A stretch of DNA of 19,227 nucleotides, from positions 1 to 19,227 of the forward strand of contig CAXTTL010000077.1 of assembly GCA_964247135.1 (NCBI GenBank). The letters run 5' to 3'. Both the position numbers and the translations under genes were made by a program. Below the pieces are notes generated by a model. It was not told the origin of the DNA and made no database searches. It was given only the letters and a program-made list of their open reading frames with translations. This DNA is from an uncultured Deinococcales bacterium. Lineage in GTDB: Bacteria > Deinococcota > Deinococci > Deinococcales > JAAFIG01. Shown piece by piece: positions 132-19,227 of the stretch (position 1 is its first letter; the number at the start of each line of letters is the position of its first letter).

Positions 132-1613
132 TCAATCTTTTGGTGAACTACTCGAACCTCGGGCTTTCAAAAGTTTCTCGAGCGTTCCTGACGGCATCAA
201 GCTGAGTATCAAAATCAGACCGATCATGCTGAAAAAGAGTCCCGCGTTGCCAACATTTAAAAAACACAGTGGCGCGAGCGCACTGAAGGCAACGGGCAGG
301 GCAAACTCGAGTCCGAGGGCGAGCACCGCCAGAACAATCGCAAGAATCGCGCCGAGCCAGCCTGCAACTGCGGGCGAGGTGTAGCCAAGCAACATGGCGT
401 TGACGGCAAAGCCAAAACCAAAGCCAAGCACCGCCAGCAACACCCGTGAAGGCTCGAGCTTCCAATGGCGCCGCCAGGCGAAGGCGATCACCCAGGCGAT
501 CATGATTAAAACTGCAAGTGGCGCAAAGCTAAAGACTTTGGTCAAGGTTTCGCGCAAACTGCCTTCAGGGAAGCTTAAAACCACACTTTGCGAGGTGATG
601 ACGTTTGAGAGTTTCCACTCGAGCGTGCCGTTTTGAGTGGTCGGGTACAGGCTGCCGCGCAAGAATTTGACGGCTCTCGGGGCGCTGACGTTCAGTTTGA
701 AATTGCGAATCGGCTCGCGCCGAGCGCCAAAATCGTAATTCCAAGTTTGAGCGCCCTGATTGCGGTATTTCACAGCAATTTCAACTTTTTGCTTGCCCGC
801 CACATCACCTTCCCAGACATAACCTTGGCTGAGGTCAGATTGCGTGACCACAACCCCGTTCACTTTCATCTCGAAGTCCGAGAGCGTGCCGGAACCGTCG
901 GGCAGCGGAAAAGTAAAACGCAACTTGGTGGGTTTCTCGAGCGGGTTGGTGAACGTGTATTTGCCACTAAAATTGGCGCGGTAATACGAACGTCCCGCGC
1001 CGATGTCACCAAAATCAAAATTGACGGCGACCTCGGCATTCTCGAGCGCCACGGGAAGGCGTTGGATCACCTCGAGGGTACGGGTGTACAACAGGGCACC
1101 AGCTTTTTTCACGAACGAATCGTCGACCTTGCGTACAAATTGGCTGTTCGGATCGTTGTTGATGTACGGCGCGAGGGCTTGGGCGGGATCGTTGCCGAGT
1201 CGTTTGGCAATGTCTGGCGGCAGGGCAAAGGTGCGGGTATAGCTGATGGTGTTGTCGTAACTGACGCTTGGACTGTACTGCACGGTTTGCCCACCGCTCG
1301 GGTCTTCGCGGCTGGAATACTGGGCGTTTTGCTGGTTCGAGAACCTCAAACCCACGGCTTGGCGGGCAATGCCCAAACCCACGGCAACCGCAAACACCGC
1401 CAACAGTACCGGCAACCAAACCAAGCTCGAGCGCAAATAATTCCAAAGCCAATCCCTGGTTTTGGCAAAAGCTTCGCGGTCAATGGCGTACAAGACCAAA
1501 CTGGCAATCAAAAGCACCGCCAGGACGATCAACAACACCAGCAAGATTGGGATCAGAAGCGCGATCAAGCTCGAGAGGGAATCGTTTAGCCAACGCAATG
1601 TGCTTTGCACCAT
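132..1613 (-). CDS. Multi-pass membrane protein with large extracytoplasmic domain (loosely CreD-like), 493 aa
   Basis: Long ORF; two N-terminal hydrophobic helices, a ~270-aa beta-rich soluble region (YRANFSGKYTFTNP...FTFPLP), several C-terminal TM helices; GGAGG SD at 1622-1626. CreD resemblance is from architecture only. Confidence 0.75.
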   Translation of the reverse strand: MVQSTLRWLNDSLSSLIALLIPILLVLLIVLAVLLIASLVLYAIDREAFAKTRDWLWNYLRSSLVWLPVLLAVFAVAVGLGIARQAVGLRFSNQQNAQYSSREDPSGGQTVQYSPSVSYDNTISYTRTFALPPDIAKRLGNDPAQALAPYINNDPNSQFVRKVDDSFVKKAGALLYTRTLEVIQRLPVALENAEVAVNFDFGDIGAGRSYYRANFSGKYTFTNPLEKPTKLRFTFPLPDGSGTLSDFEMKVNGVVVTQSDLSQGYVWEGDVAGKQKVEIAVKYRNQGAQTWNYDFGARREPIRNFKLNVSAPRAVKFLRGSLYPTTQNGTLEWKLSNVITSQSVVLSFPEGSLRETLTKVFSFAPLAVLIMIAWVIAFAWRRHWKLEPSRVLLAVLGFGFGFAVNAMLLGYTSPAVAGWLGAILAIVLAVLALGLEFALPVAFSALAPLCFLNVGNAGLFFSMIGLILILSLMPSGTLEKLLKARGSSSSPKD

Positions 1614-1696
1614 AAAGTGTGCCTCCGTAAATTCAGGATACGGAGATTTGTAAGTTTTGATGAGAATACGGCTTTCACGAATTGTTCATGCAAACT

Positions 1697-2881
1697 TTAA
1701 TCGATCAGCTCGACAACGTCCTCGAGTTCGATGCCGTCGTCAAATTCAAAAGCAATCAGTGGCATGTTGATGTAAAAAATCGCGCCCTGACCGCGTTCAG
1801 ATTCAGCCCAGATTCGCCCGCCGTGTTGTTCGATGGCAAGTTTGCAAAACGCCAAACCCATGCCCGAATCAAAACGGGTGGTGTTGGTCAACCTCGAGCG
1901 TTCAAAATCGGCAAAGATTTTTTCGATGTCCTCGGCGGGGATACCCTCGCCGTCATCGCGCACGGTGATCTCCAGGAGTGCGTCTTTGGACCTGGCTTCG
2001 ACTTGAATCCGTCCCGCATCGCGGGTGTGTTTGACGGCGTTCGAGATCAGGTTGGCAAAAACGCGGCGCAAGACTTCGGGATCGGCATTAAAATCGGGCA
2101 GGGTTTTGGGCACGATAAAGCGCAAGTTACGGGTTTGACCCTGCATTCCGACATCACCGAGCGCCAGTTTCAGCACGTCCGCAAAATCGGTGGCGGTCAG
2201 GATTTTGCTGGTCAAATTCAGTTTGCCGTCACGCATTTTGCGGACATCCAAAATGTTGGCTGCCAGGTGCAGCAAATGCCGAGATTCGTCGAACGCCATT
2301 TGCAACAGGCTTGAAAGTTTGGTCGGAAGGAGCGCCTGGGTGTCCATGCGCACCAAATCCAGAGCGCCCATGACCGCCGCGATAGGGTTTTTCAGATCAT
2401 GCACCAACATGTGCGTGAGCCTGTCCTTCATGCGGTCATCCTCGAGCAACAAATCGTATTTGCTTTCAATGTTTTGCACGCGACTCAGGGTTTCACGGTG
2501 TTTTGATTTTGAGCGCATCGCCCCGTCCAAATGCGCCCGAAAACGTTGCCCATCGAGCGGTTCAATCTCGAAAGATTCCAAACCCGCCATGTAAAACGCG
2601 GTTGCCGTCTCGAGCGGACCAAGCCCGACAATCCAGGTGTGACGCATTTCTGGACGGCGCGACAGCAACGATGCCACTTCGGGCGCACTGAGCGAACCGT
2701 TCAGGTCGTAATGCACGATCACCAGGTCTGGGGCATTGTCGATGTTTAAAGTGTGCGTTTCGCCGAGCGCCGCTTCGGCGCTGCGGTACAACAGGCATTG
2801 GTAATCGCCCAGCATCAACTCGAGTTGATCTGTGACGACTGGGTTGCTGGAAACAATCAATGCGCGTGCCACTGTTCTCAT
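1697..2881 (-). CDS. Cytoplasmic histidine kinase with degenerate N-terminal receiver domain (pseudo-REC-HisKA-HATPase)
   Basis: H-box LVHDLKNP, N-box ANLISNAVKH, G1 DDGEGI, G2 GMGLAFC; N-terminus has a receiver-fold pattern (ALIVSS...PDLVIVH...EP); no TM segments. Confidence 0.9.
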   Translation of the reverse strand: MRTVARALIVSSNPVVTDQLELMLGDYQCLLYRSAEAALGETHTLNIDNAPDLVIVHYDLNGSLSAPEVASLLSRRPEMRHTWIVGLGPLETATAFYMAGLESFEIEPLDGQRFRAHLDGAMRSKSKHRETLSRVQNIESKYDLLLEDDRMKDRLTHMLVHDLKNPIAAVMGALDLVRMDTQALLPTKLSSLLQMAFDESRHLLHLAANILDVRKMRDGKLNLTSKILTATDFADVLKLALGDVGMQGQTRNLRFIVPKTLPDFNADPEVLRRVFANLISNAVKHTRDAGRIQVEARSKDALLEITVRDDGEGIPAEDIEKIFADFERSRLTNTTRFDSGMGLAFCKLAIEQHGGRIWAESERGQGAIFYINMPLIAFEFDDGIELEDVVELID

Positions 2882-2971
2882 CCTAACTCATCTTTTAAAA
2901 CCCGAAAGGTGAATTTCGACATTCTTTCAAAAGGCAGCATTCCTGACGTGCTGATTCGAGTCAACTCGAGA

Positions 2972-2977
2972 TAGAAT
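2972..2977 (+). promoter_or_regulatory. -10 element of leaderless azlC promoter
   Basis: TAGAAT 5 nt before GTG 2983; no SD. Confidence 0.6.
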
Positions 2978-2982
2978 CGATT

Positions 2983-3693
2983 GTGAAATTTTCAGTGTTC
3001 GCTCGAGGTTTCCGAGCCATGTTCCCGATTTACCTTGGTGTGATCCCGTTCGCCCTGGCATACGCCGTGACCGCTCGGGCGGCGGGTTTGAGCGTGCTCG
3101 AGACGTGTTTGATGAGCGTGCTGGTCTTCGCTGGTGCGAGTCAGTTTTCGGCGGCGGGCGCTTTTGCCGGTGGCGCGGGTGGTTTGACCATTGTCTTCAC
3201 CACGTTTTTACTCAACGTTCGGCATCTGCTGTACGGCTTATCGCTTGGGCGCGAAATCAAACTTTCCAATTCACAACGCGTGTTCAGCGCGTATTTTTTA
3301 ACCGACGAGGCTTACGGCGTGGTCATGGCGAGCGGTGAACGCAGTTTTGATTTCTTGCTCGGTTGCGAACTCAGTTTGTTCGTGTCCTGGAATATTTTTA
3401 CGCTTGTTGGGGCAGTCGCGGGTTCGATCATTAGTGATCCTGCAAAACTGGGCGTCGATTTTATTTTTCCATTGTCGTTCACGGCGCTTATCGTGCCATT
3501 GCTGCGCTCGAGAAATGATTTGGTCGTGGCTGTCATTTCTGGGGTTCTGGCATTGGTTTTTTCTAAAGTGTTACCTGGAGGTTTTTCCATTTTTGCCACC
3601 GGCGTCATCGGTAGCTTGCTCGGCGCGTGGTTGACCCGTTCCGAACCACCTGAACTTCCGAATTTCGAGGACAATACCAGGGAAGTCGCATGA
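2983..3693 (+). CDS. azlC: AzlC family branched-chain amino acid exporter permease
   Basis: Motifs MSVLVFAGASQF, LLNVRHLLYG, LTDEAYG, GVDFIFP; hydrophobic. Confidence 0.93.
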   Translation: MKFSVFARGFRAMFPIYLGVIPFALAYAVTARAAGLSVLETCLMSVLVFAGASQFSAAGAFAGGAGGLTIVFTTFLLNVRHLLYGLSLGREIKLSNSQRVFSAYFLTDEAYGVVMASGERSFDFLLGCELSLFVSWNIFTLVGAVAGSIISDPAKLGVDFIFPLSFTALIVPLLRSRNDLVVAVISGVLALVFSKVLPGGFSIFATGVIGSLLGAWLTRSEPPELPNFEDNTREVA

Positions 3694-4004
3694 GTTTGCG
3701 CCTCGAGATTCTGTTGGTGTTTCTTGGCATGTGCGCGGTGACGTTCGGCTCGAGGTTGGCGGGTTTGATGTTGCGTGCACCGTTGCCGCCGTTTTGGTTG
3801 CGGTTCTTGCGGTTTGTGCCAATCTCGGTGTTTGCCGCACTTATTATTCCCGCCATTCCTGGCGATCAAGGCGAAAGCACGATTCGTATCGTTGCTGCCG
3901 TACTTGCCGCGTTCGTGGCGTGGCGCACTCGAGTCTTGTGGCTGACGGTGTTGGTCGGTTTTGGCACATTTTGGGTTTTTAAATTTTTCGGCGTTCACGT
4001 TTGA
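3690..4004 (+). CDS. azlD: AzlD domain membrane protein
   Basis: ATGA overlap with azlC; GMCAVTFGSR...LRFVPISVFAALIIP pattern; small hydrophobic protein. Confidence 0.9.
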   Translation: MSLRLEILLVFLGMCAVTFGSRLAGLMLRAPLPPFWLRFLRFVPISVFAALIIPAIPGDQGESTIRIVAAVLAAFVAWRTRVLWLTVLVGFGTFWVFKFFGVHV

Positions 4005-4029
4005 TAAAAATACGTTCGTATTGTAATCT
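4001..4029 (+). promoter_or_regulatory. Sigma70-type leaderless promoter of the TetR gene with palindromic operator in the spacer
   Basis: TTGATA(4001-4006)-17 nt-TAATCT(4024-4029), 6 nt before GTG 4036; inverted repeat AATACG-TT-CGTATT at 4009-4022. Confidence 0.7.
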
Positions 4030-4035
4030 TTTGGT

Positions 4036-4623
4036 GTGCGAACCTCGAGCCAGCGCCAACCCATTCTTGAACGCGCCGTTCAACTCGCGTCCGTGCATGG
4101 TTTAAACGGTTTAACCATCGGTTCGCTCGCCGAACATGTCAGCATGAGCAAAGGCGGCATCTCGGCGCATTTTAAATCCAAAACCGCCCTGCAACTCGAG
4201 GTTGTGAAAAGCGCCAGCGAACTGATGATTGTGCATGTCATCACTCCTGCCCGTAAAAAATCGGCTGGGTTGGCGCGTTTAAAAGCCTTCGATGCCGCCT
4301 GGTGGAAGTACCTCGAGGGTCGGGTTTTTGAGGGCGGTTGTTTTTTTACCAACGCCATTCTCGAGCTTGACGACCTTGAAAATGATGAGGTGGCGGCAGC
4401 CGTGCGCGAGAATTATCAACGCCTGATTGCTTACCTGGAATCTGAAACCAAAACCGCCAAACAACAAGCCGAATTGCAATCCGACCTGAACGTTTCAAGC
4501 TTTGTGCTCGAGTTTATGTCATTGCGTTTTGGCGCCATCATTTACCGCAGTCTTGGCATTCAAAACGGCGTGTCAATGGCAAAAAAGGCGGTGAAAGCTT
4601 TGATCACTCGAGCATCAGTATAA
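4036..4623 (+). CDS. TetR/AcrR family transcriptional regulator
   Basis: N-terminal HTH ILERAVQL...GLTIGSLAEHVSMSKGGISAHFKSKTAL; C-terminal GGCFF motif. Confidence 0.93.
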   Translation: MRTSSQRQPILERAVQLASVHGLNGLTIGSLAEHVSMSKGGISAHFKSKTALQLEVVKSASELMIVHVITPARKKSAGLARLKAFDAAWWKYLEGRVFEGGCFFTNAILELDDLENDEVAAAVRENYQRLIAYLESETKTAKQQAELQSDLNVSSFVLEFMSLRFGAIIYRSLGIQNGVSMAKKAVKALITRASV

Positions 4624-4642
4624 TTTTTGCATTTTTAAAAAC

Positions 4643-4654
4643 ACGAACGTTCGT
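4643..4654. promoter_or_regulatory. Putative TetR operator upstream of dinB-family gene
   Basis: Perfect 12-bp palindrome ACGAACGTTCGT flanked by A-run/T-run, just before GGAGG SD (4663-4667). Confidence 0.65.
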
Positions 4655-4671
4655 CTTTTATTGGAGGATTC

Positions 4672-5855: not shown

Positions 5856-5951
5856 GACAGTATTTTACAGGCTCGAGTTTAAACCGAACGTTTCATGGCA
5901 ATTGAACGCGCTGCCAGAAGAGAAGAAATCAGTGGCGCAAATGGCGTTGTT

Positions 5952-6446
5952 TTAAGTAACGGAATCTCGAGTTTTGGTCATCAAATCAAGGCATAAGAAT
6001 TTGATTTGAAAGCCATGACGCTCGAGTTGAGAACGCCATTCGTGCCAATCGGTGTCGGTGGCGTTCAAAATGGTTGGATTGTTGATGCTGGCATTGGCAA
6101 CGCCAATATACACGTGGTCACTTGGGTCAAACCCACGTAAAGCAGCAGGAACTTCTGAGAAAGAATGCTCTTCAATCGTCAAAGACACAATCTCGCAATG
6201 TGCGGTATCACCTTGGTTGAGATACAACCAACGAAAAAACGAATCCCCCAAACCAGGTTGACCATGAAAACTGTTGTACCTTTGATATTGTCCAAAAATC
6301 AGACCAAAACTGTCCAGAACAACAATCTTTTCTCGAGCCGCTTCAAGTGCCGACACGCAATTCAGCACACAATTGGGTGTTGCTTGTTCGGTTTCTCGAG
6401 CGTTGGCAACGATCAAAACGTTGACATCAATGACAACTGCATTCAT
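5952..6446 (-). CDS. PIN-domain-like putative nuclease, 164 aa
   Basis: N-terminal VVIDVNVL strand, FDPSDHVYIGVA and NATDTDW acidic motifs match PIN-fold catalytic spacing; ATGA overlap with upstream ATPase. Confidence 0.7.
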   Translation of the reverse strand: MNAVVIDVNVLIVANARETEQATPNCVLNCVSALEAAREKIVVLDSFGLIFGQYQRYNSFHGQPGLGDSFFRWLYLNQGDTAHCEIVSLTIEEHSFSEVPAALRGFDPSDHVYIGVANASINNPTILNATDTDWHEWRSQLERHGFQIKFLCLDLMTKTRDSVT

Positions 6447-7738
6447 GAAGAAGAAAGTGCCTTTTTGCGTTCCATTGCCGCTTTGGTCATTGCTGCAATT
6501 TCGCCAAAATCATTGCCGAAAAAGTCTTTCGGGTAATTGCGAATGTTGCCGTACTCATCCATGTCCAGCATTGTTAGTTTCGATTCGCCTTTCTCGAGCG
6601 AACAAAAGTACAGGTTGACATCGGTGGGAGAAATGATTTCTTCCGCAATTCGCCGTTGCAAACGCCGCAACAAATGCTCACTGTGACTCTCGAGAATAAT
6701 TTGCACCCCACGTTTTTGGTACGCATCAATAAAAACATCCGCCAGCCCAGATTGCACACTTGGATGCAAATGCAGTTCGGGTTGCTCGAGCAGAATGGTA
6801 GAACCTTCGGGAACGTAATAGCACAGCACCAGCACGGGTAAAACTTGCGATACACCAAAGCCAACATCGGTCAGCGAAACTTCAGGAGATTCTGGTGTGC
6901 GACGAACCAAAACCCGAAAGATGTTTGTGCCTTCGCGGAGTTCCTCGAGCCTGAAACTGTCAATCAAACCAAGGTCTTGAAGTTTTTGCGCAATGTAATT
7001 CTCGAGTGGAATATCACCAACTTTGTTCCCACCAACTCGAGCGGCGAGAAGTGCTGCAACGGTGTTTTCGCCTTGTTTGCCTACGTCTGAAGGAGCAGCA
7101 CCAGACCATGAATAAGTAGCCTTTGGAAAATCCCGCAATGGTCCAAGATATTGGATACCCTTGAGCATGTACTCAAGACTTAACTCAATGGATGTGGTAT
7201 TTTTCTGAATTTGAAATTGTTCAGCAAGAAAACTAGCTGAAACTCTATGAAAATTTCGGGAGAGCGAGTGAATACGTTGAATCGTCTTGGAGTCATCTGT
7301 ATCTAGACTAAAATTTGGCGATCCAAATGATGTTTTCGTGCCATCCATTTCTAAGATATAATTGTTCGATTTAATATATAAAAGAGAGCTAAACTGTGAA
7401 ATTCCCACAGTAAATTTTAATTTGTCGGTTATTCCCTCATTGTTAAATGTAGAATTATCTTCCCAGTCAACCTCGAGTTTTAATGAAAGATTCAAATTAT
7501 TTCTAAAAATAGTTTCCTGGAACGATCTAAGTTGTGTTAGATGTTTTTCGGCATTATCTCCAAATTGAAGAACTTGCCCTCGATCTGAACTTTCCACTGT
7601 TTGTTTCATCAATAGCAACGCCTGCAACAAACTGCTTTTCCCACTGCTGTTCGTGCCAAAAAATCCTGTAATCGGCGCAAGTAGTGCGTTCACCTCACGC
7701 CAAGATTTAAAATTCCCGAGTTGCAAGGCTTTCAGCAT
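6443..7738 (-). CDS. ABC-type (AAA_15/AAA_21, DUF3696-like) ATPase
   Basis: LGNFKSW start, Walker A GTNSSGKS, YLGPLR, signature-like DVGFGVSQVLP, Walker B/D-loop LLEQPELHLHP, H-loop ESHSEH, C-terminal DEYGNIRNYPKDFF; -10 TAGAAT (7750-7745) 6 nt before ATG. Confidence 0.9.
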   Translation of the reverse strand: MLKALQLGNFKSWREVNALLAPITGFFGTNSSGKSSLLQALLLMKQTVESSDRGQVLQFGDNAEKHLTQLRSFQETIFRNNLNLSLKLEVDWEDNSTFNNEGITDKLKFTVGISQFSSLLYIKSNNYILEMDGTKTSFGSPNFSLDTDDSKTIQRIHSLSRNFHRVSASFLAEQFQIQKNTTSIELSLEYMLKGIQYLGPLRDFPKATYSWSGAAPSDVGKQGENTVAALLAARVGGNKVGDIPLENYIAQKLQDLGLIDSFRLEELREGTNIFRVLVRRTPESPEVSLTDVGFGVSQVLPVLVLCYYVPEGSTILLEQPELHLHPSVQSGLADVFIDAYQKRGVQIILESHSEHLLRRLQRRIAEEIISPTDVNLYFCSLEKGESKLTMLDMDEYGNIRNYPKDFFGNDFGEIAAMTKAAMERKKALSSS

Positions 7739-7766
7739 TCTGGCATTCTACCGCGCCTTCGATTCC

Positions 7767-7800
7767 AAACAAAAGGACGCTCGAGATCACCTCGAGCGTC
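7767..7800 (-). terminator. Rho-independent terminator of the DUF2330 gene built from two CTCGAG sites
   Basis: Perfect 10-bp stem GACGCTCGAG(7776-7785)/CTCGAGCGTC(7791-7800), 5-nt loop, followed on the minus strand by CTTTTGTTT; 16 nt after stop 7817. Confidence 0.8.
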
Positions 7801-7816
7801 ACCAAACCCCAAAATC

Positions 7817-9100
7817 TTAACGGAAGTTTTTGATTTGCTGCCGTACCGAATCAATGCTCCATCCCGTCAAATTGGCGGTGGTTTGCGCTTCAGTCTCGAG
7901 CCTCGTTTTCAAATCTTTGCGGTATTGCTCGCCTGGTTGCCCGCAGTTGGTGTTGCCTTTGAACGGGTGCTGCATGATGTACCGCGCCTGAAAATTTTCG
8001 GTGTTGTCGGTCTGCTTGAACATCAGGTCTTCTTTAAAGTTTGCGGCATCGTATCGCACATGAAGGCGCGTGAAGAAAACACTGTCGTTCGGGTTTTCGG
8101 CAAGCCAGAATGCTCCTGCGGCGCGAAGCTGCATGACATCTGGTGGTTCGCTGGCGCACGGGTCACAAGAGTTTGGCGTCCAGGCGTACTCGAGGAAGAC
8201 CGATTTTTTGCCCTCGCGCTCGTAGGCTTTTTTGAAGGTTGCGCCGTAAAAATCCCCGAATTTGGGTTGGACAAATTCTGGAATGTTCTTATCGCTTGGG
8301 ACTTTAACATTCTGGTAATTGGCGGCTTCGACCCGTCCTTTGCGCGTCAGGCTGTACACAGTCAGGTCTTGCGTGCCGTTCGCGTTAATCATGCCCAGTT
8401 GCAATGGCAGCATAAAACCTTTGGATTTGAACGACATCCGAATTGGGCGCAGTTTCATAAAGCCGCTCGAGTCCACTTTTGAAAGGTTGACTTTTGCCAC
8501 AAAAAACTTCATGCCCGCCTTGATGTACGGCGCAAGGACTTTGCTCGCACCAGCAGGAATTTTATAACCTTCTTGCAACAGGTAGGTCTCGAGTCCGTCC
8601 GATTGCGTGGCGGAAAGAATCACAATCGAGTATTCGCCGACGCTGTACCTGGCTTCGACGGTCACACCGAGCGATTTTTGCAATTCGCCTCGAGCCTGCA
8701 TGTTGGTGGCTGGCGCTGACATGGGTTTGGCGGCATCTTCGGCAACCATTGGCGGCGGCGGGTTGCACGGGTCGGCGTCAAAATATTCGACCAGACGCGG
8801 GGCGCTGTAAGCATCGAGTTTGTCGATGATGGTCGAGTCGTTGATGCCAATCTCGGCGCGTTTTAAAACTTTGGGAACGGGCACGACCAGCGCAAAATCT
8901 TTTAACGCGCCCTGATAATCCGAAACCATCGTGATGGTTGTGCGTTCGCCGTCCCTGGCGATCATGATTTGCGAGGCTTTGTTGTACAGTTTCGCGTCCA
9001 CCCGTCCGACGTAAAACCCGCAAAATGCGGTCACGCTGCCGATAACACCAAGTCCGACGGTCACGATTCCAGCCCAGAAAAAACGGTTTCTCGGGTTCAT
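7817..9100 (-). CDS. DUF2330 domain exported protein
   Basis: Signal peptide then FCGFYV, ARDG.RT.ITM..DYQG..KDFALVVPVP, YSAPRLVEYFDADPC, SCDPC, FFTRLHVRY; SD AAAGGA upstream. Confidence 0.88.
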   Translation of the reverse strand: MNPRNRFFWAGIVTVGLGVIGSVTAFCGFYVGRVDAKLYNKASQIMIARDGERTTITMVSDYQGALKDFALVVPVPKVLKRAEIGINDSTIIDKLDAYSAPRLVEYFDADPCNPPPPMVAEDAAKPMSAPATNMQARGELQKSLGVTVEARYSVGEYSIVILSATQSDGLETYLLQEGYKIPAGASKVLAPYIKAGMKFFVAKVNLSKVDSSGFMKLRPIRMSFKSKGFMLPLQLGMINANGTQDLTVYSLTRKGRVEAANYQNVKVPSDKNIPEFVQPKFGDFYGATFKKAYEREGKKSVFLEYAWTPNSCDPCASEPPDVMQLRAAGAFWLAENPNDSVFFTRLHVRYDAANFKEDLMFKQTDNTENFQARYIMQHPFKGNTNCGQPGEQYRKDLKTRLETEAQTTANLTGWSIDSVRQQIKNFR

Positions 9101-9191
9101 AAAATTCCTTTCACGAGAGGCTTGGGGTTGATGGTACTCGAGTTTGAAGTGTTACAGCTTGACCTGAAATGTGTTGTGCATCCACCTGATT

Positions 9192-11374: not shown

Positions 11375-11438
11375 ACGACCACTTTAGCGCCCAGACCTGA
11401 GATGAGGCTCGAGATCAACCTGAAATGAAGGTGAAAAA

Positions 11439-11711
11439 TCAGCGCAAAGATTGGATCAGACGGTCATATTCGATATGTCCACCAATCCAAAACCAGGTGA
11501 TTTTATCGCCCTGTAATGTCCCGAGCGCCCTGTAACCACGCGTGACCCTGACTGAGCACAGCGAAATGGCTGGCACGACTTGTTTGAATTGCAAACCAGG
11601 ATGCTGAGGGTTACTGCGGAAAAAACGGTACGCTTCACGCGCTTGCCATTGAACGTCTTCTGGAAGGGCGTAATAGGCTTTCCAAAACAACGCCGTTGTT
11701 TCAGAAATCAC
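11439..11711 (-). CDS. RelE/ParE/HigB-like type II toxin, ~90 aa
   Basis: TTALFWKAYYALP...NPQHPGLQFK...SVRVTRGYRALG...WFWIGGHIEYD; start placed at GTG 11711 with GGAGG SD (11721-11717). Confidence 0.85.
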   Translation of the reverse strand: MISETTALFWKAYYALPEDVQWQAREAYRFFRSNPQHPGLQFKQVVPAISLCSVRVTRGYRALGTLQGDKITWFWIGGHIEYDRLIQSLR

Positions 11712-11731
11712 ATGCGCCTCCAATTGGTGCT

Positions 11732-11739
11732 ACTATAAT
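11732..11739. promoter_or_regulatory. Overlapping divergent -10 elements between toxin and antitoxin
   Basis: ACTATAAT reads TATAAT on + (11734-11739, 8 nt before ATG 11748) and TATAGT on - (11737-11732, ahead of the toxin SD). Confidence 0.55.
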
Positions 11740-11747
11740 TGCCGAAT

Positions 11748-11966
11748 ATGACCAAATTACTCGAGAAAGCTGTCACAGAAACCGAGCGTCTGCCTTTAGA
11801 GGAGCAGAATCGTATCGCTGAATGGTTGCTTGCCGAATTGGAAGACGAAGCCCAATGGGATGCCCAGTTTACTGGATCAATTGAGACTCTTGAGCGTTTA
11901 ACAAAAGAAGCCTTGTTAGAATCCAGCGCTGGACGAACAAAATCTTTAACTCCAGATTTGTTGTAG
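11748..11966 (+). CDS. Small acidic putative antitoxin, 72 aa
   Basis: MTKLLEKAV...LPLEEQNRIAEWLLAELEDEAQWDAQF...LTKEAL...AGRT pattern of the small proteins usually encoded upstream of this toxin type; acidic; adjacent to toxin. Confidence 0.78.
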   Translation: MTKLLEKAVTETERLPLEEQNRIAEWLLAELEDEAQWDAQFTGSIETLERLTKEALLESSAGRTKSLTPDLL

Positions 11967-12059
11967 ATTTCTGTTTGGTTTAATCCTGCTTGCATGAACC
12001 AGTGTAACTTTTCACTGCGTCATTTTAAAACTGCCCTCGAGCATTTTGGACTCGTGTTT

Positions 12060-14258: not shown

Positions 14259-14734
14259 GACCGACCACCCGCAATTTCGGCGGCTCGAGCCACGTTCTTG
14301 CGGATGTTGTTGTAACCGCCGCAACGGCAGTAATTTTCGTTCATGGCGTTGTCAATTTGTTCGCTGTTTGGGTTCGGGTTCTTCTCGAGCAACGCCACCG
14401 CGTTCATGATGTGACCGCTCATGCACCAGCAGCACTGCAATGGATTCTCGAGAAACGCGGCTTGCACGGGGTGAAGCTCGAGTTTGTCACCCTCACCTTT
14501 TGCCAGCCCCTCGAGGGTCGTGATGTTCTTGTCCACAGCTTCAGAAGTGGGCGTTTGGCACGAACGTTTTGGTACGCCGTCAATCAGCACATTGCACGAG
14601 CCGCAAACGCCAACGCCGCAACCGTAACGCGTTCCAACCAGCCCGAGCGTGTCGCGCAGCACCCAGACCAGCATTTCCGAGGCTTGAAAATCTGGCACTT
14701 CCCAAGTTCGCTGGTTAATCTCGAGTTTGAGCAT
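14255..14734 (-). CDS. iorA: (2Fe-2S)-binding small subunit (IorA/CoxS-like)
   Basis: GTRYGCGVGVCGSC...SC and QCCWCMSG...NYCRCGGY; -10 TAAGAT (14745-14740) 5 nt before ATG. Confidence 0.93.
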   Translation of the reverse strand: MLKLEINQRTWEVPDFQASEMLVWVLRDTLGLVGTRYGCGVGVCGSCNVLIDGVPKRSCQTPTSEAVDKNITTLEGLAKGEGDKLELHPVQAAFLENPLQCCWCMSGHIMNAVALLEKNPNPNSEQIDNAMNENYCRCGGYNNIRKNVARAAEIAGGRS

Positions 14735-14806
14735 GATTTATCTTAAATACTGCTCGAGGCGCTTTCATCAATAAGGCACACAATCTTCAACAGACGCGCC
14801 TTGACC

Positions 14807-14835
14807 TTGCAGGATGAGGCACAACTGGTTACGCT
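14807..14835 (+). promoter_or_regulatory. Leaderless sigma70-type promoter of xisH-xisI
   Basis: TTGCAG(14807-14812)-17 nt-TACGCT(14830-14835), 5 nt before ATG 14841. Confidence 0.55.
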
Positions 14836-14840
14836 AGATT

Positions 14841-15254
14841 ATGGCTCGAGATTTTTACCACGATATTGTCAAACGAGCGCTTGAAAAAGATGGTTGGCAC
14901 ATCACGCACGACCCTTACGAACTCGAGTTTGGTTCGAGTGCGTACAAAATCGATCTTGGTGCGGAAGGTTTGGTTGGGGCTGAACGAGAAGGGCAATTAA
15001 TTGCCGTTGAAGTCAAAAGTTTTCTTGGGCGTTCATTGCAGCATCAACTTCATGAGGCGGTTGGTCAATTCACCAATTACCGTGTGTTGCTCGAGGAAAT
15101 TGAGCCTGAACGCATGGTGTACTTGGCAATTCCTGAGAACATTTTTCAAGAATTGTTTGAACTACAATTTGCTCGGCTCATTCGTGAACGAACATCGTTG
15201 CGTTTGATTGTTTTCAGCCATCAAACAGAGGAGGTTATTCAATGGAATCCGTGA
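14841..15254 (+). CDS. xisH: XisH family protein (PD-(D/E)XK-like)
   Basis: MARDFYHDIVKRALEKDGWHITHDP...IDLGAE..IAVEVKSF..HEAVGQFTNYR..LAIP..EVIQW signature. Confidence 0.93.
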   Translation: MARDFYHDIVKRALEKDGWHITHDPYELEFGSSAYKIDLGAEGLVGAEREGQLIAVEVKSFLGRSLQHQLHEAVGQFTNYRVLLEEIEPERMVYLAIPENIFQELFELQFARLIRERTSLRLIVFSHQTEEVIQWNP

Positions 15255-15580
15255 AATTGCGCCAAATTGTTCGTGAATTGCTCGAGTATTATGTTTCCTT
15301 GGGTGCAAGTCACCGCACCCAAGACAATCCTGCTTTTGTGCTGGTCGACAAAGACGAAAATCATTTTCAATGGATGCGCTTGGGTTGGCTTGGTCAACGT
15401 CGCGTTTATGGTTGTGTGATGCACTTGGAAGTCAAAGACAACAAGATTTGGGTTCATCAGGACAATACCGATTTGGACCCTGTGGGTGCGTTGCTCGAGC
15501 GAAACATACTGCCAAGCGATATCGTGCTGGCGTTTCATCCGCCTTATGTCAGAAAAGACACGGGTTTTGCAGTTGGATAA
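15242..15580 (+). CDS. xisI: XisI family protein
   Basis: GW.GQRRVYGCVMHLEVKDNKIWVHQDNTD...DIVLAFHPPYVRKDTGFAVG; overlaps xisH end; GAGGAGG SD. Confidence 0.93.
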   Translation: MESVKLRQIVRELLEYYVSLGASHRTQDNPAFVLVDKDENHFQWMRLGWLGQRRVYGCVMHLEVKDNKIWVHQDNTDLDPVGALLERNILPSDIVLAFHPPYVRKDTGFAVG

Positions 15581-15594
15581 GTATTCGCTCGAGC

Positions 15595-16176
15595 TTATTT
15601 GCGTTTCTTGCCAGGTTTGACTTTTTGCGGCAAATCAAATCGAATCACGTTCGGCGCAGCTTTTTTGTATTGCAAACTGGCAACCACGGCTTTGGCGCGA
15701 CGTTCGACTTGCAGCGCACGGCGCACGTTTTGCTGACGCAATTCGGCAATCGCTTTTAATTCCTCGGTCGTCAGGACAATTTCGTTTTTGTACTTCAAAA
15801 CGCGTTTGCCAATTTTGTCCGACAACTCTTTTAACTTGTCACGTTCGCCCGCCAGTTTTGCCCGCAAGCCCTCGATTTCGACTCGTAGCGCCTCGGCATC
15901 TTTGCCATTGATGGTCACGGGTTTTTCGGCTTCGCTGCCGCCAGCAATTTTGAGCTTGATCTCTTTTAGACTCAAACCCTCCAAGCGGAGCATCTTGACC
16001 AACTCGAGCGCGTCAAAGGCGTCCAGGTCATAGACTTTTTTGTTTTCACGATCAAAGCTTTTTAAAAACCCCTCTTTTTCGTAATTGCGTAACGTCGCGC
16101 TCGAGATTCCAGCCAGTTCTGCCAGACGCGTTTGGGTCACGCCGGCGATCAATTCGGTTTTTAAGTTTGAATCCAT
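15595..16176 (-). CDS. MerR-type HTH protein with long C-terminal coiled coil, ~193 aa
   Basis: LAELAGISSATLRNYEKEGFL...VYD...LRLEGLSLKEIK; heptad-rich C-terminus; start moved to ATG 16176 because TAAACT (16189-16184) lies 7 nt upstream. Confidence 0.8.
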   Translation of the reverse strand: MDSNLKTELIAGVTQTRLAELAGISSATLRNYEKEGFLKSFDRENKKVYDLDAFDALELVKMLRLEGLSLKEIKLKIAGGSEAEKPVTINGKDAEALRVEIEGLRAKLAGERDKLKELSDKIGKRVLKYKNEIVLTTEELKAIAELRQQNVRRALQVERRAKAVVASLQYKKAAPNVIRFDLPQKVKPGKKRK

Positions 16177-16292
16177 AAGCTCGAGTTTACCTTGCCCAGC
16201 CAGCCAAGTCCAAGGTTTGTGTTTTGCAAGTAACACCAAAAACGTAGCCAAAAGCACGTCTCGAGCCAGAATCCCGCGTTACAATCCGCCCC

Positions 16293-16925
16293 ATGACCCA
16301 GACCTTGAGACCAGCCGCCGCCACCGTCAAAGAAGCCATCGAAAGCCGCCGCAGCGTGCGCCAATTTGAGCAAACCCCAATGCCCGAAGCCGATTTGCTC
16401 GAGATTCTGCGCTTGACCAGCCTCGCCCAGAGTGCTTTCAACATGCAGCCCTGGCGTTTTGTGGTCGTGACCAACAAGGAAGTGAAAGCCAAGCTCGAGC
16501 TTGCCGCCAACGGTCAAAAGCAGGTCGGCAGTGCGCCGGTGGTGATTGCCGTGGTTGCCGACGGCGCTGAATTTCATCAGCCGACCGAACTGTTGGCACG
16601 TCCCGAAGTGCTGGCTGACCCCGAAAAATTTGAAAAGTACAAGGCGACGGTTGACCGCGCTTACGGTTCCAAACCCGTCGAGGCGAACACCGAATTTGCC
16701 GCCCGCATGAGTTACATCGCCATCGGGTATTTAACGCTCGCCGCCAGGGGTTTGGGTTACGACACCAGCGTGATGCTGGGCTTCAAACCAGCCGAGGTCA
16801 AAGCCCTGCTCGAGATTCCCGAACACGCCCAGGTCACGGCGTTGATTGCCCTCGGTCGAGGCGTCGAAGATGGCTTGCCGCACCACCGTTTGCCACTCGA
16901 GGTTTTAACGCGTTTTGTGCGTTGA
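16293..16925 (+). CDS. Nitroreductase family flavoprotein
   Basis: IESRRSVRQF, AQSAFNMQPWRFVVV, LGYDTSVMLGF, ALIALG, RLPLE; -10 TACAAT (16280-16285) 7 nt before ATG. Confidence 0.94.
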   Translation: MTQTLRPAAATVKEAIESRRSVRQFEQTPMPEADLLEILRLTSLAQSAFNMQPWRFVVVTNKEVKAKLELAANGQKQVGSAPVVIAVVADGAEFHQPTELLARPEVLADPEKFEKYKATVDRAYGSKPVEANTEFAARMSYIAIGYLTLAARGLGYDTSVMLGFKPAEVKALLEIPEHAQVTALIALGRGVEDGLPHHRLPLEVLTRFVR

Positions 16926-17022
16926 AAGGCTCGGTGCTTCGTTGATCGCTTTCAAGTTCGGGTAAAAGATTGATGTACCGACCATGACACGCCCATAAAC
17001 GGCAATGGATTATATTGAGTCC

Positions 17023-17805
17023 ATGATCGATCTTGCCACCCGCGCACGCACCCTGCTCGAGCTTCACACCGCCCCGCAAATCCTCAGCCTGACCAACGTC
17101 TGGGATGTCGTCTCGGCACAGGTTGTCGCCGCCACGCCAGGCACGACGGCACTCGCCACCGCCAGCCATTCGATTGCCGCGACCTTCGGTTACAAAGACG
17201 GCGAGAACATCCCGCTCGAGCTTCATTTCGACATGGTTCGGCGCATCGTCGCGGCGGTCGATCTGCCCGTCAGCATGGACTTTGAAGCCGGTTACGGACA
17301 CCCTGGCGAAACGGCACGAAAAGCCATCGCCGCCGGTGTGGTCGGCGGCAACCTCGAGGATCAAATGAAACCGCTCGAGGAGGCGGTCGCGGCGGTCAAA
17401 GCGGTGCTGGCTGCTGGACGTGAGGCTGGCATCGATTTTGTTCTCAACGCCCGCACCGACGCGCTGATACGCGCCGATGCCAACGCCCCGCGCAGCCAAG
17501 TTTTGGATGAAGCAATTCGCCGTGGACTCGCCTTTCTCGAGGCTGGCGCTCCGGTGGTTTTCGTGCCAGGGTTGGTGGCGAGGGACGAAATCAAATTGCT
17601 GGTCGAAGCGTTCGGACCCCAAAAACTGACCGTCATCAGCGTGCCAGGAAAGAGTCTGCCCGCTCGAGAACTCGAGGCGCTGGGTGTGGCTCGGGTTTCG
17701 ACCGGACCGTTCACGCAAAGGGTGGCACTCACGGCGCTGCAAGATGCGGCAACCGCAATGAATGCTGGCGGAGAGTTGCCAAAGGAAACACGGGCTTTGA
17801 ACTAA
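17023..17805 (+). CDS. Isocitrate lyase/PEP mutase family protein
   Basis: NVWDVVSA, ALATAS, GYKDGE, PVSMDFEAGYG, GGNLED, LNARTD, AGAPVVFVPG, LGVARVSTG; start moved to ATG 17023 (TATATT at 17011-17016, 6 nt upstream). Confidence 0.92.
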   Translation: MIDLATRARTLLELHTAPQILSLTNVWDVVSAQVVAATPGTTALATASHSIAATFGYKDGENIPLELHFDMVRRIVAAVDLPVSMDFEAGYGHPGETARKAIAAGVVGGNLEDQMKPLEEAVAAVKAVLAAGREAGIDFVLNARTDALIRADANAPRSQVLDEAIRRGLAFLEAGAPVVFVPGLVARDEIKLLVEAFGPQKLTVISVPGKSLPARELEALGVARVSTGPFTQRVALTALQDAATAMNAGGELPKETRALN

Positions 17806-17864
17806 GAACGTGTTGATGAAGTCGATTGGAACAAGAATATGGCGGTGGTTTGTTGTTGTTTTGA

Positions 17865-17929
17865 CTATAAGCTTTAAGCGATAAGCTCTAAGGAACATCG
17901 GTTTTTGGCTTACATATAGCAGCTTATAG
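17865..17929. repeat. Degenerate heptamer tandem repeat with inverted arm between convergent genes
   Basis: CTATAAG-CTTTAAG-CGATAAG-CTCTAAG (17865-17892); CTATAAGCT (17865-17873) is the exact reverse complement of AGCTTATAG (17921-17929). Confidence 0.55.
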
Positions 17930-17981
17930 CCCTACTCGAGACACCTTCATAAACACCTTCTAATGCGTTGGCTCGTCCGAT

Positions 17982-19028
17982 TCAACGCAGGGCGCGGGCA
18001 AACAATTGATCCCAAGCCGCCAAGGCAGGTTTGGGATCGAGATCGCTGGTGACCAAACCCAAATGCAAAAATGGCTCGAGGTTGCTGGGCAGGTTGCCGT
18101 CTGGAAAAAACGCTTTGCCGTCCAGGTCAGCAAATTGCAATTGAAAAACCCCCACGAGTTTGGCTTGATCGGCTTGTTCCGCCATTCGTCGAATGTACCT
18201 GGCTTGCAGGTTCGGGTTTGAATTGAAACCCGTTCCAGAACCCGAGGACCAGCCGCCCTCGACCAGCAAGGTTGGCAGCTTGTGACCTTGGATCACCTTT
18301 GACAGGTAATCGAGCGGAACCTCTTCGGGCGTGTTGTAATGCGCCAAATACGGGTAAGAGGAAAGTCCGACGGCTTGTAAAAACGGAAAATCGAGAAAGT
18401 CTTGTTCTGCGCCAACAAAAACGTTCGTTCCCTGGAAACGCCCCCAGGCGGTATCGACTTGAAGGCTGACAAAACGTTTGATGTTTGGCGCTAGCCTCGT
18501 CACATCGTTTGCGGCGGCATTCACCAACGGAACGAGCGCCGCATAAAGACTTGGATTTGCCAACCGAATCAAATTCGTTTCTGCCGCCAAACCCAGATAA
18601 CTGGGTTGAATCAACTGAGCGACCGCCAAAGTGTAAGCGCGGTAGAGGTTTTGAATCGCGGTTTCGTTCAAACTTCGCCCCGCCGCCACCAACTCTGGCG
18701 CCTCCTCGGCGCGGTTCAGACCATTGGTGATGTCCAACGTTACGACCAGCATCAGGTTTTTTTGCCGAAAATAATTCGCCACGGGCAATTCATTTGCCGC
18801 CAAAAGTTCTTGTGGCGTTTTGCCCTCGAGCAGAGCCTTCCAGGGAATAGCAATATGAAAAATGGCGGCGTCGGAGCGTTTGGTCCAAAGCTCGAGGGTC
18901 TGCACCGCTTGATTCACATCGGGTCGAGGTGGGAGGTTTTGGAAACCCATCCGGTAGGTTCGGGATTGAATCTCATTCAGAGACGTGCAGCACAGTAGTA
19001 TTAGCAAAAGGGGCAACACTTTGAACAT
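17982..19028 (-). CDS. Exported/lipoprotein glycoside-hydrolase-like TIM-barrel protein (clan GH-A-like)
   Basis: Signal peptide MFKVLPLLLILLCC; candidate catalytic Glu in YLGLAAETN and LLVEGGW; GLSSYPY; C-terminal LGLV...PKPALAAW; -10 TAAGGT (19040-19035) 6 nt before ATG 19028. Confidence 0.7.
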   Translation of the reverse strand: MFKVLPLLLILLCCTSLNEIQSRTYRMGFQNLPPRPDVNQAVQTLELWTKRSDAAIFHIAIPWKALLEGKTPQELLAANELPVANYFRQKNLMLVVTLDITNGLNRAEEAPELVAAGRSLNETAIQNLYRAYTLAVAQLIQPSYLGLAAETNLIRLANPSLYAALVPLVNAAANDVTRLAPNIKRFVSLQVDTAWGRFQGTNVFVGAEQDFLDFPFLQAVGLSSYPYLAHYNTPEEVPLDYLSKVIQGHKLPTLLVEGGWSSGSGTGFNSNPNLQARYIRRMAEQADQAKLVGVFQLQFADLDGKAFFPDGNLPSNLEPFLHLGLVTSDLDPKPALAAWDQLFARALR

Positions 19029-19059
19029 CACAAAACCTTACCGCAAAACGGTGAGTTCA

Positions 19060-19078
19060 GGCTAAGCTCAGCTTAGCC
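19060..19078. promoter_or_regulatory. Perfect inverted repeat (operator or 3' hairpin)
   Basis: GGCTAAGCT-C-AGCTTAGCC, right after the upstream stop codon and near the -35 zone of the 19028 gene. Confidence 0.45.
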
Positions 19079-19079
19079 A

Positions 19080-19227
19080 TCAACTCTCAGCGCCAGGGGT
19101 GTTCCAAACGCCACCCACCCCAAGCCAAGCGTTGACAAAATCCTCGGGCGGACTGCACTCGAGCTTGATGAGTTCGTTTGTAACCGGATGATAAACCTCG
19201 AGCCGCCAAGCCTGAAGTGCCTGCCGG
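19080..19227 (-). CDS. C-terminal end of an RluA/RluD-family pseudouridine synthase (5' part outside the window)
   Basis: Manual translation from 19226: RQALQAWRLEVYHPVTNELIKLECSPPEDFVNAWLGVGGVWNTPGAES*, matching RQALHA..L...HP.T.E......P.D. Confidence 0.75.
   Translation of the reverse strand, partial: RQALQAWRLEVYHPVTNELIKLECSPPEDFVNAWLGVGGVWNTPGAES

Follow-up and report, generated by a model that had tools for sequence, protein, structure and literature searches.

The stretch of DNA analysed here, called the window, is a contig of 19,227 nt (C77) in the genome G000 of an uncultured Deinococcales bacterium. Its open reading frames (ORFs) include a histidine kinase, an AzlC protein, a TetR-family gene and an ATPase, and coding as well as non-coding DNA is dotted with one palindromic hexamer, CTCGAG. 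The hexamer occurs 142 times between positions 177 and 19202, a number that none of 200 dinucleotide-preserving shuffles of the window reached (mean 3.98, standard deviation 1.99, maximum 11). The initial annotation had counted about 140 sites by hand against about 5 by chance and had described a highly iterated palindrome (HIP) like HIP1 of cyanobacteria; the exact figures agree with its count. CTCGAG is almost certainly a genuine, lineage-wide HIP-type element outside cyanobacteria, maintained at the DNA level on the whole hexamer.

Abundance, layout and protein imprint of CTCGAG

The ORF map places 83 of the 142 sites in the CTC-GAG frame, 21 in xCT-CGA-Gxx, 24 in xxC-TCG-AGx and 14 outside ORFs. 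These 14 include all ten positions that had been listed as non-coding. The two frame examples singled out earlier are also confirmed, as ORF 4036-4623 starts with VRTSS (site 4044) and ends with LITRASV (site 4607). The flanks of the sites vary, as had been claimed, and no carrier element was seen among the repeats of the window. Repeat finding there gave only weak families of 20-39 nt with 60-91% identity, several of which share little beyond CTCGAG; it found no dispersed element carrying the hexamer. A dispersed repeat of the repetitive extragenic palindrome (REP) or miniature inverted-repeat transposable element (MITE) kind was therefore rejected as the source: there is no conserved sequence beyond the core, the flanks are near background and the window holds no carrier repeat.

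G000 comprises 5,091,702 bp in 386 contigs, with a GC content of 52.7% and an estimated completeness of 84%. It contains 33,925 CTCGAG, one per 150 bp, which is 24.8 times the 1,369 expected from base composition. No other hexamer of the genome reaches half this count, and the next commonest are words that overlap CTCGAG itself. Motif-masked Markov models predict 564 (order 2) or 883 (order 3) copies, corresponding to observed/expected ratios (O/E) of 38-60. The maximal-order Markov expectation of 27,444 was discarded as uninformative, since the counts of CTCGA, TCGAG and TCGA are themselves dominated by the motif. The nine pairs of one-letter variants show O/E values of 0.08-1.7 (0.5-1.7 without the CTAG-containing pair), each NTCGAN word other than CTCGAG has 121-2,188 copies, and the flanking bases deviate little from background, the strongest preferences being 38% for G at -1 and 38% for C at +1. 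As neither the one-letter variants nor the other NTCGAN words are enriched and the flanks are near background, the unit is the hexamer. Palindrome avoidance is extreme in G000: 48 of the 64 palindromic hexamers have an O/E below 0.5, the rare ones including GAGCTC (0), GGGCCC (1), CGGCCG (3), GGATCC (7), CCGCGG (11) and CAGCTG (15), and GGCC-containing hexamers number 1-125.

The initial annotation had named three outcomes that would speak against a dedicated motif, namely loss of the excess in a shuffle that preserves amino acids and dicodons, enrichment in the window only, and an explanation by the frequency of the tetramer TCGA. All three fail. The enrichment is genome-wide, with 2.6-10.5 CTCGAG per kb (median 6.8) on all 297 contigs of at least 5 kb, and TCGA outside CTCGAG lies at expectation (20,685 copies against 19,754). 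A shuffle that preserves amino acids was applied to 3,743 non-overlapping ORFs of at least 150 aa (4.10 Mb), which hold 26,696 CTCGAG, 1 per 153 bp: 16,340 as CTC-GAG, 4,169 as xCT-CGA-Gxx and 6,187 as xxC-TCG-AGx. Codons were permuted synonymously within each gene, which keeps the proteins and the (already motif-inflated) codon usage. Five replicates left 3,622-3,807 sites, about 2,800-2,900 of them in frame, 289-305 as xCT-CGA-Gxx and 478-587 as xxC-TCG-AGx. The excess over this null is about 7-fold overall, and it is larger in the two out-of-frame registers (about 12-14 times) than in frame (5.7 times). Shuffling of codon order left 1,559-1,607 sites in three replicates. A dicodon-preserving shuffle is unsuited as a null because it keeps in-frame copies by construction. 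The earlier statement that codon-pair bias alone does not explain the motif is upheld by the shuffles, by the out-of-frame registers and by non-coding DNA.

The imprint on proteins is measurable. In the G000 ORFs, 16,340 of the 21,226 Leu-Glu dipeptides (77%) are encoded as CTCGAG, against 11% expected from codon frequencies, and Leu-Glu has an O/E of 2.38 relative to amino-acid composition, against 1.01 for Glu-Leu. A DNA-level force has thus leaked into protein sequence, overriding synonymous codon choice and roughly doubling Leu-Glu in the proteome. Orthologues from other families carry Leu-Glu opposite in-frame CTCGAG at 2/21, 9/48, 2/34, 14/46 and 12/55 positions, control dipeptide identity being 23-33%; these are small samples with orthology by best BLAST hit. 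Given how few Leu-Glu pairs are found there, many of those at CTCGAG look like replacements made in this lineage.

The motif is even denser between genes. Gaps of 30-300 bp separating long ORFs (1,499 in all, 178 kb, GC 46%) contain 1,659 CTCGAG (1 per 107 bp), where 37 would be expected. In metagene profiles CTCGAG is spread almost evenly, without promoter- or terminator-like localisation. The exception is an approximately 2-fold increase immediately downstream of stop codons: in 169 of 3,716 ORFs a CTCGAG starts exactly 2 nt after the stop, some four times as often as at adjacent positions. At this peak the sequence is typically TAA or TGA, two purines and CTCGAG. Among 66 tRNA calls by ARAGORN, some of which look doubtful, there are 10 CTCGAG in 5,129 nt against 34 expected from genome density.

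Neighbouring copies avoid each other at short range. The pair correlation starts at 0.31 (6-15 bp), climbs through 0.75 (15-30 bp) and 0.93 (45-60 bp) to about 1 by 60-75 bp and stays flat, near 1.0-1.07, out to 1.2 kb. A spacing of exactly 6 does not occur, because GAGCTC would arise. Counts are under-dispersed in bins of 150-300 bp (variance/mean 0.79-0.83, with 0.79 at 150 bp) and within intergenic gaps (0.71-0.83), and over-dispersed at 1 kb and above.

Nine of the 13 longest CTCGAG-free stretches of G000 have a GC content of 27-40%. Islands of 27-33% GC without a single copy for 1.7-2.6 kb lie at C13:11892-14536, C70:14167-16418, C20:7985-9673 and C1:102560-104482, and are probably recent horizontal acquisitions. 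A restriction-modification (R-M) pair of MvaI/BcnI type with 39% GC has 0.6 CTCGAG per kb, against 4.3-6.7 per kb in the other restriction and methylase genes.

Conservation was assessed in the window only, aligned to five congeners at 84-86% nucleotide identity over 10.4-16.1 kb each. From 64/90 to 74/83 of the aligned CTCGAG (71-89%) are kept, against 41-45% of all other hexamers. Where all six genomes align (6,761 positions), 27/51 CTCGAG are common to the six, compared with 16.7% of control hexamers. The same picture emerges from codon-matched controls at positions where the amino acid is conserved: CTC is kept in 248/270 cases before GAG and in 126/241 elsewhere, and the GAG, CGA and TCG of CTCGAG are kept in 255/276, 67/74 and 84/91 cases, with 162/230, 46/90 and 158/241 in the respective controls. 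Non-coding CTCGAG is kept in 22 of 31 congener comparisons, against 42% of control hexamers. Between genera of the family, at 58% amino-acid identity, 61 of 264 in-frame CTCGAG are still CTCGAG. Conservation among congeners together with this turnover therefore indicates protection of sites in the short term and replacement in the long term, with density held.

Relatives in the order and candidate enzymes

The relatives belong to five families (f1-f5) of one order and were sampled over 5-119 kb for sequence analyses; searches for methylase homologues covered 151 genomes and the search for RecC 41. The labels of f2 to f5 (Trueperaceae-, Deinococcus-, Marinithermaceae- and Thermus/Meiothermus-like) are inferred. 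FtsZ of G000 is 64-69% identical to that of named Deinococcus species, 59-64% to Truepera and metagenome-assembled genomes (MAGs) of Trueperaceae, and 59% to Meiothermus luteus. The window belongs to f1, with 19 genomes in 5 genera, of which 18 are multi-contig at 57-94% completeness and one, G011, is a single contig of 5.09 Mb. From these assembly figures, f1 is read as an uncultured, MAG-derived family.

All 19 f1 genomes, with 46-65% GC, carry 12,028-35,442 CTCGAG, or 4.3-6.8 per kb. In samples of 14-40 kb from f1 relatives of 46% to 64.5% GC, CTCGAG is the top or joint-top hexamer. The eight genomes tested (G000 and seven relatives) all exceed synonymous shuffles, by 2.9-11.4 times, with a Leu-Glu O/E of 1.9-2.5; members of 46-51% GC reach 10.6-11.4 times. 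GAGCTC numbers 0-568 per f1 genome, and at most 25 in 16 of the 19. An assembly artefact is very unlikely, because the 19 assemblies are independent and one is a single 5.09-Mb contig. The force behind the motif is thus directional, acts on the whole hexamer independently of frame and GC, is family-wide and is absent from foreign-looking DNA. Hyper-abundance, specificity for the hexamer, presence in all frames and in non-coding DNA, lineage-wide occurrence and conservation at orthologous positions bear out the description as HIP1-like.

The 36 Deinococcus-like genomes (f3) are depleted, with 37-1,193 CTCGAG (0.01-0.27 per kb) in 1.9-4.8 Mb. They represent the opposite extreme to f1 within one order. 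Thermus-like genomes have about 0.9 CTCGAG per kb and other genomes outside f1 0.3-3.4 per kb, with an excess over synonymous shuffles of 1.8-3.2-fold where tested and of 5.4-fold in a small sample of the Trueperaceae-like genome G027. Much of the moderate signal outside f1 is codon usage in GC-rich genomes. In G027 (f2, GC 52%) the top 8-mer is GCTCGAGC, which occurs 102 times in 119 kb (2.1 expected) and 2,645 times in the whole genome. There, 102 of 125 CTCGAG are flanked by G and C, and each one-off of the octamer has at most 6 copies. Copies of the octamer lie in every reading frame as well as in non-coding DNA, at a density of one per roughly 1.1 kb (about 860 per Mb), and its GC content is 75%. 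TCGA is depleted in the Thermus-like genomes G022, G026 and G038, and all 24 TCGA in 20 kb of G022 lie within CTCGAG. In these genomes CTCGAG is almost always flanked by C and G as CCTCGAGG (22/24 in G022, 20/24 in G026 and 16/19 in G038).

The methylase genes of G000 mostly lie beside restriction endonucleases (REases), of the MvaI/BcnI, PvuII, NotI-like, NgoPII, Eco29kI and SacI families, forming at least six type II R-M pairs. Words matching these REase families are almost absent from the genome (GAGCTC 0, CAGCTG 15, CCGCGG 11). G000 further encodes a 466-aa PF01555 protein of sporadic occurrence, one type I HsdM, two proteins resembling MmeI and a methylase-helicase of 1,502 aa. The 466-aa methylase was rejected as the cognate enzyme, as it is sporadic: full-length relatives of 62-89% identity exist in 3 of 40 other genomes, two of them with stop codons. 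The matches of about 500 aa to PF07669 that recur in relatives were likewise rejected, being diverse type I HsdM subunits of 25-30% identity.

The single-contig genome G011 has no PF01555 methylase. It encodes one C5 methylase beside HD-CE and ORC/CDC6-like genes, three PF02384 (N6_Mtase) proteins of 514-693 aa, one 1,108-aa protein, a SacI-type pair and one orphan Dam-family methylase. The orphan lies between housekeeping genes (C1:4320394-4321239) and is a close homologue of M.CbeI, whose specificity we take to be GGCC. The match is to PDB 7M6B (E 1.7e-91), and M.CbeI is an alpha-class N4-cytosine methylase according to a CASP14 report (PMC8616854). This type ('D12-A'), the sole orphan found in f1, was rejected as the cognate enzyme, occurring in only 9 of the 19 f1 genomes and also in G019. 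A SacI-family REase with a Dam-family methylase is present in 11 of the 19 f1 genomes and in none of 22 others. The possibility that this pair is a disguised CTCGAG system was dismissed: GAGCTC is commonest in G008 (568), G010 (161) and G015 (114), all lacking the REase, which fits GAGCTC as its target.

XhoI-family REases (PF04555) were not found in any of the 19 f1 genomes. They occur in 5 of 23 f4 genomes, beside either a 340-aa PF01555 methylase with an SPPY motif, which we read as the N4-cytosine type, or a 583-aa Eco57I/TaqI_C methylase. In G031 an XhoI-family gene with two stop codons stands beside an intact 583-aa Eco57I/TaqI_C methylase (C1:1093829-1096226), apparently an R-M system on its way to an orphan methylase. 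Orthologues of the Eco57I/TaqI_C type with at least 46% identity are present in 9 of 151 genomes and in none of f1, where relatives of only 29-35% identity occur in 1 of 19 genomes and tblastn of G000 gave no match. Of 151 genomes, 33 were found to encode the XhoI-linked PF01555 type, among them 15 of 22 Thermus-like ones and G027; in the 19 f1 genomes its only trace is a 43% partial match in G006. The G027 enzyme (L319:731-1579, minus strand) is an SPPY-type PF01555 methylase with 62-66% identity to the type beside XhoI-family REases. In G027 and in one Thermus-like genome this methylase is followed by a protein of 209-225 aa (209 aa in G027). The two copies share 37% identity and show weak similarity to the catalytic core of XhoI, carrying SLK instead of ELK; the protein had no match in G000. 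A resident XhoI-type R-M target in f1 was rejected, as neither the cognate REase nor the linked methylases were found in the 19 genomes, nor the XhoI-like partner in G000.

Vsr (PF03852) was not detected in the 19 f1 genomes, with two of 22 other genomes and an E. coli control positive, and a Vsr-driven motif was rejected on this ground. RecC (PF04257) was not detected in 41 genomes, again with a positive E. coli control. This absence, and the fact that CTCGAG is a palindrome and has no orientation, speak against a Chi-like RecBCD signal. Viral contigs with three clustered CTCGAG are, among the matches listed, mainly GC-rich, with 2-6 copies per kb, and are uninformative on phages of f1.

Known systems and competing explanations

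HIP1 is GCGATCGC and the alternate cyanobacterial HIPs are GGCGCC, GGGATCCC, rCCGGy and GCsGC (PMC4390886). As described there, HIPs resemble CTCGAG in being palindromic and grossly over-represented (15-300-fold), in lying in all frames and in intergenic DNA, and in being conserved at orthologous positions and characteristic of lineages (PMC4390886, PMC5861425). CTCGAG lies well above the O/E of about 15 that marks the class (24.8 genome-wide), exceeds codon usage in all frames, and shows both orthologous conservation and lineage-wide occurrence. HIP variants also replace one another between relatives, just as f1 has the hexamer and G027 the octamer. A further trait of the class is a periodicity of 10-90 kb along the chromosome; for CTCGAG, with G000 split into 386 contigs, the spacing analysis covered short ranges. 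The differences are a phylum outside the cyanobacteria (Deinococcota), a 6-mer of 67% GC instead of an 8-mer of at least 75% GC, and a density in f1 of 4,300-6,800 copies per Mb against the 300-2,700 quoted for HIP1 (PMC4390886). CTCGAG also falls outside the description of alternate HIPs given there by Elhai, with at least 75% GC and about 1,000-2,000 copies per Mb. Unlike HIP1, it has measurably altered amino-acid content. A cognate methyltransferase was looked for in f1 and not found, whereas Elhai reports one in every HIP genome; G027 does share that feature. Elhai 2015 (PMC4390886) contains no occurrence of CTCGAG. Full-text searches, with most subscription journals and supplements outside their scope, found no report of over-representation of CTCGAG or GCTCGAGC, and a prior mention is possible. 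What appears new is the occurrence of a HIP-type element beyond the cyanobacteria, with a hexameric unit, a higher density and no sign of the methylase that would be expected.

XhoI/PaeR7I-type R-M systems recognise the same word, and XhoI-family REases with two linked methylase types exist in the same order. Targets of resident R-M systems are normally avoided, however, while CTCGAG is the commonest hexamer and the genes were not found in the 19 f1 genomes. Very-short-patch repair, which shapes CCWGG and CTAG in enterobacteria, raises the frequency of a methylase target at one position only and gives a modest excess. In contrast, CTCGAG is 25-fold in excess over all six positions in a family without detected Vsr (0/19). 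The DNA uptake sequences (DUS) of Neisseria, the uptake signal sequences (USS) of Pasteurellaceae and Chi, which needs RecBCD or AddAB, are over-represented 'self' words of lineages, non-palindromic, 8-12 nt long and present about once per 1-5 kb. CTCGAG is like them in being an over-represented short word that acts as a lineage 'self' signature.

The explanation held, with guarded confidence, to be the best overall is that CTCGAG is the HIP-class palindrome of f1, each copy being under weak selection as a recognition site. The sites would be read by an abundant DNA-reading factor, which may be the reader of a 'self' or nucleoid-type mark or an undetected modification enzyme, and returns would diminish for copies closer than about 60 bp. 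Making use of all of the about 34,000 sites would take an abundant binder, or else an enzyme that is processive or catalytic. Weak selection is favoured since a drive on a single position cannot give a 25-fold excess and since conversion site by site predicts no repulsion. Selection on a protein-read site as the main force maintaining the motif, as opposed to neutral biased repair, is given about even odds. That it is a methylase-independent, protein-read mark in f1, of the 'self' or nucleoid-organising kind and the densest iterated palindrome so far described, is conceivable though doubtful.

The initial annotation had inferred a dedicated system, such as an orphan methyltransferase for CTCGAG or TCGA. 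A link to methylation is plausible in the order, given the octamer and methylase of G027, but no such orphan was found in f1. In a methylation-linked HIP, a CTCGAG methyltransferase, orphan or part of an R-M system, would mark the sites, and methyl-directed repair or selection for the mark (Elhai's ratchet) would accumulate them. CTCGAG-type systems are common elsewhere in the order, each of the XhoI-family REases in f4 standing beside a methylase. G027 pairs GCTCGAGC with a PF01555 methylase of the XhoI-linked type, and its architecture of G, methylase site and C matches the scheme for HIP1 in Elhai 2015 (PMC4390886), a fit that keeps this model alive for the order. For f1 it is tentative at best. 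Neither XhoI-linked methylase type was found there, the complete G011 has no PF01555 methylase, and the G000 methylases are paired with REases of other families, the only orphan being the M.CbeI-like enzyme of 9 of 19 genomes. Methylase presence and CTCGAG density do not go together across the order: in g27 the Eco57I-type enzyme is present at only 0.9 sites per kb, and g13 has 2-3 per kb with this enzyme in 3 of its 10 genomes. Methylation of CTCGAG by an enzyme missed here is accordingly rated as unlikely. Neutral biased mismatch repair, or gene conversion between genome copies, would resolve heteroduplexes towards the CTCGAG strand with no function involved. It would suit a motif that is densest where constraint is lowest (1 per 107 bp in intergenic DNA, 1 per 153 bp in ORFs), whose density is independent of GC and constant between f1 genera while positions turn over. 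A Vsr-type drive on a single position, however, would at most about triple a hexamer, so that drive on all six positions is needed; Vsr was not found in the 19 f1 genomes, the one-off variants show no depletion except for the pair that contains CTAG, and independent conversion does not predict the avoidance below about 60 bp, which is seen in non-coding gaps too. The same kind of site conservation was used to argue for selection on HIP1 by Xu et al. 2018 (PMC5861425). Neutral drive is judged fairly unlikely.

An uptake or recombination 'self' signal, DUS/USS- or Chi-like, that serves natural transformation or double-strand-break repair is improbable. Known uptake sequences and Chi are far longer and sparser than a hexamer found once per 150 bp. 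A palindrome cannot carry the orientation of Chi, and RecC was absent from the 41 genomes searched. Some features do agree with such a signal, namely the sharpness of CTCGAG as a signature of f1, its absence from foreign-looking islands and a short-range spacing more even than Poisson, and a 2026 paper argues that HIP1 may act as an uptake sequence (PMC13756078). The idea of a codon-pair, amino-acid or composition artefact, with CTC and GAG as favoured codons and Leu-Glu common in GC-rich genomes, draws on the GC-rich relatives outside f1, which have 1-3.4 CTCGAG per kb and only 1.8-3.2 times the count of synonymous shuffles, and on GC-rich viral contigs that reach 2-6 per kb among the matches listed. 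Codon usage therefore explains part of the weaker signals outside f1. For f1 such an artefact is hardly credible and is refuted by synonymous shuffles, intergenic counts and low-GC members: G000 exceeds by 7 times a shuffle that already holds the motif-inflated codon usage, the excess is stronger out of frame than in frame, the motif is strongest in intergenic DNA of 46% GC, and members of 46-51% GC exceed their shuffles most clearly (10.6-11.4 times).

Several points weigh against weak selection on a recognition site. The searches in f1 identified neither a reader nor a writer of CTCGAG, and its role as the site of a factor is inferred. The absences rest on Pfam models and BLAST, in a genome of 84% completeness and relatives that are mostly MAGs; of the five Pfam DNA-methylase families scanned, PF07669 was run on the 19 f1 genomes and the other four on G000 and five relatives. 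Absence from a single MAG is weak evidence, here consistent across 19 f1 assemblies of which one (G011) is closed. The gene set comes from a longest-ORF heuristic instead of a gene caller. Turnover of positions between genera may mean that density rather than position is kept. Biased repair or a gene-conversion drive would also produce conservation and accumulation, and divergence data cannot separate them from selection.

For thirty years HIP1 has stood as a cyanobacterial oddity without explanation, and f1 offers an independent and stronger case in another phylum. It would show a DNA-level force visibly rewriting protein sequences. The order presents a graded series, from depletion in the Deinococcus-like family through moderate levels in Meiothermus- and Trueperaceae-like genomes and the octamer of one genus to the extreme hexamer of f1, and thus lends itself naturally to a comparative study of what gives rise to such motifs and what reads them. 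If CTCGAG is a methylase-independent mark, selection on it would be strong enough to double a dipeptide in the proteome. Taken with GCTCGAGC and the SPPY-type methylase of G027, this would make HIP-type marking general in bacteria, evolved independently of cyanobacteria and open to dissection in tractable Thermus-like and Meiothermus-like relatives. In practice, CTCGAG can serve as a clear-cut marker when f1 genomes are binned or foreign DNA is sought within them, and XhoI or TaqI would cut f1 DNA to pieces of about 150 bp unless it is modified.

Features of the window

The coordinates of individual features are collected in the table below.

Table. Features of the 19,227-nt window related to CTCGAG
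Feature	Position	Strand	Remarks
Array of 142 dispersed CTCGAG hexamers	177..19202		7.4 per kb; without longer repeat unit
Intergenic CTCGAG	2965..2970		between histidine-kinase ORF (1697-2881, minus) and AzlC ORF (2983-3693, plus)
CTCGAG as xxC-TCG-AGx (Thr-Ser-Ser)	4044..4049	+	start of TetR-family gene 4036-4623
CTCGAG as xCT-CGA-Gxx (Thr-Arg-Ala)	4607..4612	+	near end of TetR-family gene 4036-4623
AAA_15/AAA_21/DUF3696 ATPase gene (431 aa)	6443..7738	-	7 CTCGAG, 5.4 per kb, despite low GC
Two CTCGAG, 11 bp apart start to start	7780..7796		78-bp spacer between ORFs 6443-7738 and 7817-9100
Three CTCGAG (11408, 11760, 12036)	11408..12041		686-bp stretch without ORF of at least 100 aa
Longest CTCGAG-free stretch of the window	18081..18824		745 bp start to start, within ORF 17982-19031

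The lowest-GC 2-kb bin of the window (6001-8000, GC 44.5%) contains the ATPase gene. A 164-aa ORF overlaps upstream of this gene, and the two together span 5952-7738 on the minus strand, largely within the lowest-GC bin; they may form a defence-type gene pair. Short sequences at 1-83, and also at 5902-5956 and 17802-17955, match dozens of places in the five congeners, with a period of about 27 nt at the contig end. They look like a dispersed or tandem small repeat, which probably breaks assemblies.

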